From the IMG/VR virus record IMGVR_UViG_643348547_000013: a stretch of 46,955 bases of DNA; one strand, given 5' to 3'. A program made the translations under genes and the position numbers. Below, piece after piece: positions 8,343 through 10,575 of the stretch. Source of the DNA: a virus. Its lineage: Duplodnaviria; Heunggongvirae; Uroviricota; Caudoviricetes. Under the pieces are notes generated by a model. That model searched no databases. It worked only from the letters and a program-made list of their open reading frames with translations, and was not told the DNA's origin. The first letter of the stretch is position 1, and each line of letters opens with the position of its first letter.

Positions 8343-8603
8343 CAGAACACCTTCAATTTTTAACCACAGAACGATGAGGCTAACCGTGGGTAAGCATCAC
8401 TGGAAAGTAGAAAAACAGCCTGAGTGGTACGTGAAAGCTGTCAGAAAAACTATCGCGGCGTTGCCGGGGGGGTACGCTGAAGCTGCTGAGTGGCTAGATG
8501 TAACAGAGAACGCTTTATTCAACCGCCTTCGTGCAGATGGCGATCAGATTGAACCGCCCCGGGAATCCTGGAGACTAAACTTCCTGAGAAAGAGGTAAAC
8601 AGG

Positions 8604-8930
8604 ATGACTAAAAATACTCGTTTTTCCCCCGAAGTCCGTCAACGGGCAGTCCGTATGGTTCTGGAAAGTCAGAGCGAATATGACTCACAATGGGCGACAA
8701 TTTGTTCCATTGCTCCAAAGACTGGCTGTACGCCGGAGACTCTGCGTGTCTGGGTTCGCCAGCATGAGCGGGATACCGGGGGCGGTGATGGAGGGCTCAC
8801 CACCGCTGAACGTCAGCGTCTGAAAGAGCTGGAACGTGAAAATCGTGAACTGCGCCGCAGTAACGATATCCTTCGCCAGGCTTCCGCTTATTTTGCGAAG
8901 GCGGAGTTCGACCGCCTCTGGAAAAAATGA
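8604..8930 (+). CDS. IS629 OrfA (transposase N-terminal HTH protein)
   Basis: 108-aa product [22 protein letters not shown]... recalled as IS629 OrfA; A6 slippery run at its 3' end. Confidence 0.9.
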
Positions 8931-9817
8931 TGCCACTGCTGGATAAGCTGCGTGAGCAGTACGGGGTCGGACCGCTATGCAGCGAACTGCATATTGCCCC
9001 GTCAACGTATTACCACTGTCAGCAACAGCGACATCATCCGGATAAACGCAGTGCCCGTGCGCAGCGCGATGACTGGCTGAAGAAAGAGATACAGCGCGTA
9101 TACGATGAAAATCACAAGGTATACGGTGTGCGTAAAGTCTGGCGTCAGTTGTTACGGGAAGGTATCAGAGTGGCCAGATGCACTGTGGCACGTCTCATGG
9201 CGGTTATGGGACTTGCCGGTGTTCTCCGGGGTAAAAAGGTCCGTACGACCATCAGCCGGAAAGCCGTTGCCGCAGGCGACCGCGTAAACCGTCAGTTCGT
9301 GGCAGAACGACCTGACCAGCTGTGGGTGGCTGATTTTACTTACGTCAGCACATGGCGGGGCTTCGTCTATGTGGCGTTCATCATTGATGTGTTTGCCGGA
9401 TACATCGTGGGGTGGCGGGTCTCATCGTCCATGGAAACGACATTCGTGCTGGATGCACTGGAGCAGGCGTTATGGGCCCGTCGACCGTCCGGCACGGTCC
9501 ATCACAGTGATAAAGGTTCTCAGTATGTATCGCTGGCCTACACACAGCGGCTTAAGGAAGCCGGATTACTGGCATCAACAGGAAGTACAGGCGACTCGTA
9601 TGACAACGCGATGGCGGAGAGCATCAATGGTCTTTACAAAGCGGAGGTAATACACCGTAAGAGCTGGAAAAACCGTGCAGAAGTGGAACTGGCCACACTC
9701 ACGTGGGTGGACTGGTATAACAATCGACGATTGCTGGAAAGGCTGGGCCATACTCCTCCGGCAGAAGCAGAAAAAGCTTATTATGCTTCCATCGGAAACG
9801 ATGATCTGGCAGCCTGA
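8927..9817 (+). CDS. IS629 OrfB (transposase catalytic DDE domain)
   Basis: 296-aa ORF overlapping orfA in the -1 frame, typical IS3-family arrangement. Confidence 0.9.
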
Positions 9818-10246
9818 GTTCACAGATAAAACACTCTCCAGGAAACCCGGGGCGGTTCAGATTTTCCCGCTGGGATGGGCAATGATTTTACAGCGCGCGG
9901 CTGGCACTCACTACATTGCGGATGCTGTCGCACAGTCTGCTGGTGGGGTGTTTGTATCGCTTCCTGAAATTGAGGAAGTAGAGAACGCCGATATAAACCA
10001 GCGCCTGCTGGAAGTCATCGAACAGATCGGGAGTTACTCAAAGCAGATTCGTTCGGCAATCGAAGATGGGGTAGTGGAGCCACACGAGCAGACAGCAATT
10101 AATGATGAGTTGTATCTGTCAATTTCGAAGCTCCAGGAGCATGCAGCACTGGTCTACAAAATCTTTTGCGCTCCAGAAAAGAGTGACGCCCGCGAGTGTG
10201 CAGCTCCGGGCGTCGTGGCGTTTTGTGTCTGTGGAGAAACTAACGC

Positions 10247-10575
10247 ATGAACAGTTTAACGGCAAATAACCGTTTGTCGCAACAGCTGGTGGTCAGCGTC
10301 GCTGAACACCTGTTGTTACGGCATGAATGCAGATTACCAAATCTCCTGGCTGTAAGTAACCACAGAGAACTTTACCTGACTGTGGGGGGCGAGTTGTGCA
10401 GGAACTTAACCGCTGGTTTCGTGACGGAAGAGGACTTTATGTTCATGTTATTCGTTGGGAGCCAGAAACACAGCGCGTTATCTATCTTCGCAAAGACTAC
10501 CCGCATGAGTGCTTTAGTCCTTTGTGGAAATTCAAGCGTGATTTTGTTGAGTGTGAAGGACCACCAGCACATTGA
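10247..10575 (+). pseudogene. frameshifted hypothetical gene (G6 homopolymer at 10384-10389)
   Basis: N-terminal frame (from 10247) becomes low-complexity after the G-run, whereas the -1 frame from 10390 to the stop at 10573-10575 reads protein-like but has no ATG. Confidence 0.35.

Follow-up and report, generated by a model that had tools for sequence, protein, structure and literature searches.

An IS629 insertion splits the CII-like gene ymfL in the early operon of a prophage of Escherichia coli IAI39

In the 46,955-nucleotide stretch of phage DNA that we analysed (the window), a complete IS629 element lies inside ymfL, separates the N-terminal 58 from the C-terminal 129 residues of its product, and makes the full-length protein impossible. 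The sequence points to a simple transposition, recent in evolutionary terms, that placed IS629 in codon 59 by a clean cut-and-duplicate event. Our preferred explanation joins this insertion and the resulting ymfL knock-out to a putative role of YmfL in the establishment of lysogeny and to a partial polarity on the genes downstream, and we give it, as a whole, a probability of about 0.8. The window matches the E. coli IAI39 chromosome at 100%, where the prophage is integrated between yjjG and prfC; its early region is of the SfV type and its late genes are lambda-like. The features around the insertion are as follows.

7377-8051, minus strand: ymfK-like repressor gene, with a Peptidase_S24 (LexA-like) autocleavage domain (PF00717, E = 2e-26)
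8142-8342, plus strand: cro-like gene ymfT, encoding a YdaS-family HTH protein; it opens the rightward early operon
8374-8549, plus strand: 5' fragment of the CII-like gene ymfL; it holds codons 1-58 and 2 further nt and corresponds to the N-terminal part of the family profile
8547-8549, no strand: left copy of the 3-bp GAT target-site duplication, a direct repeat flanking IS629
8550-9859, plus strand: complete IS629 of the IS3 family, 1310 bp; the transposase genes are co-directional with the early operon
8550-8574, plus strand: left inverted repeat (IRL) of IS629, TGAACCGCCCCGGGAATCCTGGAGA, agreeing at 23/25 positions with the right end read in reverse complement
8604-8930, plus strand: IS629 orfA, 108 aa, Pfam HTH_Tnp_1, frame open
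8885-9001, plus strand: ALIL pseudoknot (Rfam RF01497; 120.2 bits, gathering score 50)
8927-9817, plus strand: IS629 orfB, 296 aa, rve/DDE integrase core and HTH_21, frame open
9835-9859, plus strand: right inverted repeat (IRR) of IS629, from the inverted-repeat comparison with IRL
9860-9862, no strand: right copy of the 3-bp GAT target-site duplication, a direct repeat flanking IS629
9863-10250, plus strand: 3' fragment of ymfL, running from the third base of codon 59 through codon 187 to the stop, with no start codon of its own

The boundaries of the element were set by its ends, TGAACCGCCCCGGGAATCCTGGAGA on the left and the reverse complement of TGAACCGCCCCGGGTTTCCTGGAGA on the right, which agree at 23 of their first 25 positions. 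The outer termini, TGAACCGCCCCGGG... and ...CCCGGGGCGGTTCA, have the form of an IS3-family element, which is about 1.3 kb long with inverted repeats that start with TG and end with CA, and the flanking GAT is the short direct duplication (3-4 bp) expected of this family. The product of orfB matched the Pfam rve profile (E = 8e-28) and scored 314.6 bits against NCBIfam transpos_IS3, for which the cut-off is 160. The ALIL pseudoknot, an IS3-family stimulator of -1 frameshifting, is placed at the orfA/orfB overlap, and a programmed frameshift is annotated in relatives. OrfA is an exact match to the "transposase ORF A, IS629 [E. coli IAI39]" and the cluster names for OrfB include "IS629 transposase OrfB" and "IS3-like element IS629 family transposase"; the name IS629 is taken from depositor-given protein names rather than from the ISfinder reference nucleotide sequence. 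Copies annotated as IS1203 were 95-96% identical to the one in the window. A preliminary description of this DNA, which had reported a complete 1310-bp IS629 with intact inverted repeats and a GAT target duplication, is borne out by these coordinates, repeats, and open frames.

Joining 8374-8549 in frame to 9863-10250 produced a 564-nt reading frame of 187 aa plus a stop, close to the length of about 188 aa proposed earlier for the continuous ORF; in NCBI relatives the start is placed at the GTG at 8386, for a length of 183 aa. In at least 30 complete E. coli genomes, an intact ymfL agreed with the restored DNA at all 564 nt (100.0% identity), and the restored protein was 100% identical to orf36 of the viable phage SfV as well as to its counterparts in phage cdtI and Stx2c phages. 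Removing IS629 together with one GAT therefore returns exactly the wild-type ymfL allele. Because of this identity to intact ymfL, the two flanks are the halves of a single gene rather than parts of a chance ORF, and the possibility raised in advance that they belong to different genes is ruled out. A comparison with uninterrupted homologues had also been proposed: an uninterrupted ymfL homologue with at least 80% coverage was present in 2562 of 5426 complete E. coli genomes, and near-identical prophages free of the IS were found. As it stands, the interrupted ymfL ORF reads into IS629 up to the TAA at 8596-8598, predicting a 74-aa product. The 3' fragment alone still matches positions 51-141 of the PF06892 profile.

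In the IS-free prophage of APEC E18005, which is collinear with the window, identity was 99.79% to the left of IS629 and 99.975% to its right, and the element is absent from prophages otherwise 99.8-99.98% identical. Strain FDAARGOS_1288 likewise carries an IS-free prophage at the 99.9% level of identity. From the repressor gene to Q, the window is about 97% identical to, and collinear with, the early region of SfV. The repressor gene is intact and transcribed away from IS629; it is labelled ymfK or LexA family in the near-identical prophages and cI in SfV. Its neighbor ymfT, so named in relatives, is called cro in SfV and falls in PHROG 35 (transcriptional repressor). With ymfT ending at 8342 and ymfL beginning at 8374, the insertion does lie in the first gene after cro, as had been described, and it precedes the replication, recombination, and Q genes of the rightward early operon, represented by a replication-initiator-like gene (11309-12127), rusA (13591-13980), and Q (15778-16572). 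The prophage carries a second IS, an ISL3-family element at 17878-19762 in the late operon, which would confound the attribution of any prophage defect to IS629 alone; the terminase gene lies at 23756-25858.

To which family the interrupted gene belongs is clear at the level of profiles. Restored YmfL scored 169 bits against NCBIfam NF041471 (YmfL; cut-off, 90) over profile positions 2-143 of 143, and 55.3 bits against Pfam PF06892 (Phage_CP76; gathering threshold, 26) over positions 5-141 of 146, and it falls in PHROG 101, "CII-like transcriptional activator" (E = 5e-73). The CII protein of phage 186 is itself a member of PF06892 (163.6 bits, E = 3.7e-48), but a pairwise BLASTP comparison of the two proteins gave no similarity (E = 13), their relationship being at profile level only. 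PF06892 was the sole Pfam family at E ≤ 0.01 for restored YmfL, with similarity to lambda CII absent, and no relative was found in the PDB at E ≤ 1. No N, CII, or CIII of the lambda type was recognised in SfII, SfV, and SfIV (PMC3851460). On profile evidence, then, YmfL is CII-like at the family level (YmfL/Phage_CP76), with lambda-type CII excluded; the term CII-like in the preliminary description stands in the first sense, through PF06892 and PHROG 101, and fails in the second.

In phage 186, CII (CP76), which shares PF06892 with YmfL, activates the promoter pE, from which lysogeny is established. The order apl then cII in 186 corresponds to ymfT/cro then ymfL in the window, a like position in the rightward operon, and in both 186 and e14 the gene that follows cII or ymfL encodes a cell-division inhibitor (fil and ymfM, respectively). 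Overexpression of YmfL itself led to no filamentation. On the other hand, the two proteins differ in length (187 aa for YmfL and 169 aa for 186 CII), and the 186 annotation places pE and a CII binding site at the 5' end of cII, whereas no counterpart was identified in the window. A search for CII-type binding repeats in 8040-8460, around the 5' end of ymfL, returned only 7- to 8-nt repeats in two copies, which is the chance level.

By analogy with 186 CII, YmfL would activate a leftward promoter for the establishment of lysogeny. Maintenance of the resident prophage would presumably be unaffected by its loss, because both the S24 repressor and the operators, all to the left of IS629, are intact, and the loss of YmfL alone should leave SOS induction unblocked. 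Progeny phages without YmfL, however, would establish lysogeny poorly. The examples of 186 and lambda thus suggest that losing the CII-like activator should impair the establishment of lysogeny rather than induction.

The insertion may also affect the genes behind it. After induction, transcripts from the early promoter would have to run in the sense direction through 1.3 kb of IS629. Ribosomes translating the truncated ymfL would halt 5 nt before the orfA ATG, and translation of orfA and orfB would end at 9817 at the latest. This leaves an untranslated stretch of about 430 nt (9818-10246). The ORF that follows also loses its translational coupling to ymfL, because the ymfL TGA overlaps the ATG of that ORF (ATGA, 10247-10250). 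The untranslated stretch and the broken coupling make a degree of Rho-dependent polarity likely for the replication genes and Q. A complete block of downstream transcription is not what the sequence predicts, by a qualitative argument. A scan of the plus strand over 7900-11400 for intrinsic terminators found weak hairpins only, none of them convincing within IS629 or at its right end. Tracts with C in excess of G, our proxy for Rho loading, were nowhere conspicuous; G exceeded C on the plus strand across most of IS629 and the ymfL 3' fragment, suggestive of poor Rho loading.

The main competing explanation is that the polarity is strong, i.e., that IS629 terminates early rightward transcription, leaving the replication genes and Q silent and the prophage locked in the chromosome. 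In lambda, the insertions r14 (IS1) and r32 (IS2) in or near cII are polar on O and P, which speaks for such an effect, and this polarity is partly suppressed by N antitermination. The arrangement is the same in lambda and in the window, with an IS in the CII region upstream of the replication genes, but the IS families differ and the CII types are not homologous. The lambda insertions are the textbook example of IS polarity in a phage. Here, IS629 separates every delayed-early gene from the early promoter region, the lost coupling and the untranslated RNA would act in the same direction, and SfV-type phages have no recognised N-like antiterminator (PMC3851460). The prophages of IAI39 have, moreover, been classed as defective owing to ISs, although this classification rests on inspection rather than on experiment (PMC3945230). 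Against strong polarity are the lack of a convincing plus-strand terminator inside IS629 or at its right end and the base composition that is poor for Rho loading.

Insertions in Stx phages tell against it, too. In FRIK1275, with stx2::IS629, downstream transcripts and plaque-forming phage are retained (PMC7430833), and Stx2a phage genomes with IS629 in roi or in lysozyme and methyltransferase genes have been found encapsidated (PMC4587872). These IS629/IS1203 insertions, the principal source of differences among closely related prophages, share with the window the IS family, the genes of prophage operons as targets, and the question of polarity. However, Stx phages have N and Q antitermination and the insertions studied in them lie in late or nin regions, whereas the IS629 in the window comes directly after cro, where the early operon of this SfV-type phage begins; the Stx insertions also have experimental read-outs, while the present one is known from sequence alone. 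Taking both sides together, we regard strong polarity as possible but doubtful.

A gain of regulation, rather than a knock-out only, is improbable. It could take either of two forms: SOS read-through from the early operon would raise transposase expression, or transcription leaving IS629 would give low constitutive expression of the early genes and of isrK/C4-like RNAs. The transposase genes are co-directional with the operon, the right end of IS629 shows no evident terminator, and a frame that is open from 9675, within the element, extends into the ymfL 3' fragment. At the other end, the truncated ymfL ORF stops right after the Shine-Dalgarno sequence of orfA (AAGAGG), 5 nt before the ATG, with stop and start within 8596-8606. 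On this geometry one might, with little confidence, imagine a copy of IS629 that has become SOS-responsive in a prophage locked in by loss of the CII-like activator and partial polarity; if so, prophage induction would raise transposase synthesis and IS629 transposition. The basis of the idea is geometry, however, and a scan of 7900-11400 for consensus promoters found no promoter-like site, although the same scan also missed the early promoter region itself. To express the replication genes or Q constitutively would, in addition, probably harm the host.

A 200-nt query across the left junction was compared with 5426 complete E. coli genomes (the RefSeq set, from which IAI39 is excluded), and an identical IS629/ymfL junction was found in none of them; the sole match spanning the junction, in ETEC1706, belongs to a different site that lies about 46 nt further downstream. 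In the species-representative genomes, an exact 40-mer scan for the junction gave 0 matches. That the junction is an artefact, either a misassembled repeat or a recombination between two IS629 copies that joined different genes, is scarcely credible, since its absence from the complete and species-representative genomes and the multicopy nature of IS629 in E. coli are outweighed by the perfect 3-bp duplication, by flanks that, once joined, show 100% identity to an intact ymfL allele and are both collinear with a single IS-free prophage, and by the source of the sequence, the finished IAI39 chromosome (Touchon 2009), whose place outside the RefSeq set explains the missing junction.

Related elements have reached the same block of genes elsewhere. 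A neighborhood search, which joined co-oriented copies only and is therefore silent on orientation preference, found eight genomes with a co-oriented IS629-type copy at most about 1.6 kb from ymfL, all at different sites. Insertions in ymfL itself were rare: in two of the 5426 genomes, against the 2562 with an uninterrupted gene, the copy was within it, at nt ~221 in ETEC1706 and nt ~24 in strain 2-1, and the isoforms in these two strains were 95-96% identical to that of the window. Other sites were in rha (O121:H19 16-9255 and SW070919), ymfM (NCCP 13914), and a replication gene (MS8345). These strains thus resemble the window in the IS family and in the promoter-proximal block that was hit, but since positions and isoforms differ, the insertions near ymfL are separate events. 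We considered ymfL as a hot spot for IS629 and rejected this, as only two of the eight neighboring copies lie in ymfL and every site is different.

An IS629 hop into a prophage gene is an ordinary event, and IS-disrupted prophages were already known from IAI39. De Paepe et al. (2014) counted every prophage of this strain as defective on account of ISs in life-cycle genes (PMC3945230); the strain is the same as here, whereas the available part of their report names neither ymfL nor IS629 and describes no induction experiment. Our literature search found no published induction data for IAI39. The value of the present finding is mainly one of annotation: an IAI39 prophage is without its putative activator of lysogeny establishment, through one of two IS insertions, which fits the general picture of prophage decay driven by ISs. 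Genes of the YmfL family occur in about half of the complete E. coli genomes and in the viable phages SfV, SfII, SfIV, mEp460, cdtI, and Stx2c. This natural ymfL knock-out and its near-identical, IS-free relatives form a ready pair for probing the putative CII-like role of YmfL, and the same pair would suit a study of IS polarity in an early operon in which no N antiterminator is recognised.

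The preliminary description's complete 1310-bp IS629 with intact inverted repeats and a GAT duplication was recovered in every particular. The insertion sequence occupies 8550-9859; its left end TGAACCGCCCCGGGAATCCTGGAGA and its right end, the reverse complement of TGAACCGCCCCGGGTTTCCTGGAGA, agree at 23 of 25 terminal positions, and a GAT direct repeat borders it at 8547-8549 and 9860-9862. OrfB scores 314.6 bits against NCBIfam transpos_IS3. We found OrfA to be identical to a deposited "transposase ORF A, IS629 [Escherichia coli IAI39]" and OrfB to be identical to CFT073 proteins, in a cluster with members called "IS629 transposase OrfB" and "IS3-like element IS629 family transposase". 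Copies labelled IS1203 by PGAP share 95-96% identity with this element. Based on the ends, the GAT repeat, both reading frames, the frameshift pseudoknot, and the deposited names, this is a complete and apparently functional IS629. The gene order also confirms that the element sits where the preliminary description placed it, within the rightward early operon and with the replication, recombination, and Q genes downstream of it.

Features of the early region and of the two insertion sequences
7377-8051, minus strand, S24 repressor gene ymfK/cI
8142-8342, cro-like gene ymfT
Directly after ymfT, ymfL interrupted by IS629
8604-8930, plus strand, IS629 orfA (108 aa, HTH_Tnp_1)
8885-9001, ALIL frameshift pseudoknot of the IS3 family (Rfam, 120 bits)
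8927-9817, plus strand, IS629 orfB (296 aa, HTH_21 and rve)
10247-11083, "ash-family" ORF, followed by a small ORF
11309-12127, replication-initiator-like gene
From there to Q, in order: PerC-like gene, dam, LexA-like gene, rusA, KilA-N gene, DUF968 gene
15778-16572, Q, with lysis and lambda-like morphogenesis genes downstream
17878-19762, second insertion sequence (ISL3 family, 1885 bp), in the late operon between Q and the lysis genes
17977-18495, DUF1706 passenger ORF of the ISL3-family element
18514-19734, transposase of the ISL3-family element

Removing the IS and one GAT joins 8374-8549 to 9863-10250 in a continuous ORF of 564 nt encoding 187 aa, against the roughly 188 aa of the preliminary description. 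At least 30 complete E. coli genomes carry an uninterrupted ymfL with 100.0% identity to the restored DNA over its full length, and an uninterrupted homologue with at least 80% coverage is present in 2562 of 5426 genomes. At the protein level, restored YmfL is the same (100% identity) as orf36 of Shigella phage SfV and as proteins encoded by phage cdtI and by several Stx2c phages; identity is 97% for the mEp460 product and about 90% for the SfII (annotated cII) and SfIV counterparts. The flanks are therefore halves of one gene rather than parts of different genes, and the reported split of ymfL by IS629 is fully confirmed.

The description of the split gene as CII-like stands at the family level, where the label is fair. 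Restored YmfL matches the YmfL family NF041471 of NCBIfam (169 bits; cut-off, 90), Pfam PF06892, Phage_CP76, "phage regulatory protein CII (CP76)" (55.3 bits versus 26; positions 5-141 of 146), and PHROG 101, "CII-like transcriptional activator" (E = 5e-73), and the Pfam search returned no family besides PF06892. The characterised CII protein of phage 186 belongs to the same Pfam family (E = 3.7e-48); according to the 186 record, it binds at the 5′ end of cII itself and thereby activates pE, the leftward promoter for establishment. However, a pairwise BLASTP of YmfL against 186 CII gave no similarity (E = 13), and these profile matches place YmfL in the 186-type CII family, not the lambda type; SfII, SfV, and SfIV are without lambda-type CII, CIII, and N (PMC3851460). 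The sole YmfL experiment that we found is the overexpression of e14 ymfL, which caused no filamentation; overexpression of ymfM did. IS629 separates the first 58 residues of YmfL, up to about profile position 50, from the rest. The N-terminal piece runs into the IS to give a 74-aa product that falls below every family threshold. The other 129 residues, at the C terminus, lack a start codon but retain a match to positions 51-141 of the profile. Two PHROGs of "unknown function" match YmfL in part, phrog_8690 (residues 5-53) and phrog_7487 (residues 66-187), and look like families built on split or truncated CII-like genes.

Window positions 9746-30801 are 100% identical to 5,061,451-5,082,506 of the finished IAI39 chromosome (CU928164.2), which puts IS629 at about 5,060,255-5,061,564, in a prophage flanked by yjjG and prfC. 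APEC E18005 and other strains have an IS-free prophage at this site (99.3-99.98% identity, insertions and variable segments aside). We compared the flanks with this uninterrupted E18005-type prophage and found 99.79% identity to the left of IS629 (1-8550) and 99.975%, gap-free, to its right (9857-17877), near-identity that shows the insertion to be recent. The early region between the repressor gene and Q aligns collinearly with its counterpart in the viable temperate phage SfV, at about 97% identity.

Several other features of the prophage were observed. Relative to APEC E18005, the interval that separates the lysis genes from the small terminase gene is replaced (22338-22875; 538 bp versus 134 bp) and the tail-tip/tail-fibre region (40488-45352) has diverged (86-87% identity or no match), which is ordinary mosaicism. 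The yfdR-like 5′-deoxynucleotidase gene (4756-5313, minus strand) has an 11-bp deletion at about 4819 versus the E18005 and FDAARGOS_1288 prophages, some 30 codons from its end, so that its C terminus is frameshifted (185 aa versus 178 aa). The 14-mer ATTATTTCTCACCC occurs at 142 (region of about 90-160). In E18005, it lies between yjjG and the integrase gene, within a 69-nt stretch with the annotation of an incomplete gene, and is found again at the other end of the prophage, inside the 5′ end of prfC, which suggests that the element integrates into the start of prfC and brings a replacement 5′ end. At its right edge, the prophage carries a reverse-transcriptase gene (RVT_1, 456 aa; 45585-46955, minus strand) that runs to the window end; relatives have a SLATT-domain gene, a DinI-like pseudogene, and then prfC after it, and the RT-SLATT pair looks like a defence-type cassette carried as cargo.

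IS629 hits in prophage genes are commonplace and already known, and the IAI39 insertion is an event of this kind. Among the 5426 genomes, we found independent IS629-type insertions at two other sites in ymfL (ETEC1706 and strain 2-1) and in nearby genes (rha, ymfM, yfdP, and a replication gene). De Paepe et al. classified the IAI39 prophages as defective by inspection, on account of insertion sequences in life-cycle genes (PMC3945230); no induction data for IAI39 were found in the literature searched.

The preliminary interpretation is partly supported: the knock-out of the gene and its family assignment hold, and the suggested polarity or defectiveness is plausible. Partial polarity on the early operon is likely, as IS629 stands between the early promoter region and every delayed-early gene. 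In uninterrupted ymfL, the stop codon shares the sequence ATGA (10247-10250) with the start codon of the following ORF, a coupling lost with IS629; translation ends by 9817 at the latest, leaving about 430 nt unprotected, and no N-like antiterminator is recognised in the SfV-type phage group (PMC3851460). A complete block of downstream transcription is less likely: a consensus scan of the IS plus strand gave a single weak hairpin (9317-9332) and none at the right end, and G exceeds C on that strand over most of 8550-10250, which is atypical for Rho loading sites. In FRIK1275, stx2::IS629 keeps downstream transcripts and the IS-bearing phage plaques (PMC7430833), and Stx2a phage genomes with up to three IS629 copies, one in roi, came from DNase-treated, ciprofloxacin-induced lysates (PMC4587872). 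Since those phages use N and Q antitermination, they weaken the case for strong polarity without settling it.

The surroundings of the insertion raise further questions. Just downstream of IS629 and ymfL, Rfam matches adjoining isrK Hfq-binding (10607-10683, plus strand; 64 bits) and C4 antisense (10708-10795, plus strand; 82 bits) RNAs, both wholly within the Pfam "Ash" region of ORF 10247-11083 (residues 117-210, about nt 10595-10876). The coding extent of this ORF and its Ash domain is questionable given these matches, and whether a P1 immI-type or Gifsy-1 IsrK-type RNA switch lies just 3′ of ymfL may be asked. The roughly 740-bp interval between yfdP and the repressor gene (6642-7376) has no annotated gene in relatives and is non-homologous to the matching SfV segment, which has orf33 and two predicted terminators annotated; a leftward early promoter or N-like function, if this phage group has one, would be expected there.

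The second IS (inverted repeats GGGTCTTCCCC/GGGGAAGACCC; 8-bp duplication AAAAATAA) is missing from the IS-free relative and interrupts, after its seventh codon, a gene for an N6/N4 DNA methyltransferase that starts at ATG 17856. Because ATG 19746 in its right end is in frame with the remainder of the gene, a hybrid methylase with the new N terminus MIGEDPK... may still be made. With this element in the late operon, IS629 could not be held solely responsible for any experimental defect of the prophage.

Full-length YmfL cannot be made, and the repressor gene and the operator region on its right are intact. By analogy with 186 and lambda, a CII-type activator would be required for the establishment of lysogeny and dispensable for maintenance and lytic growth, and the loss of ymfL alone should therefore leave induction possible, with progeny phage that should be poor lysogenisers.
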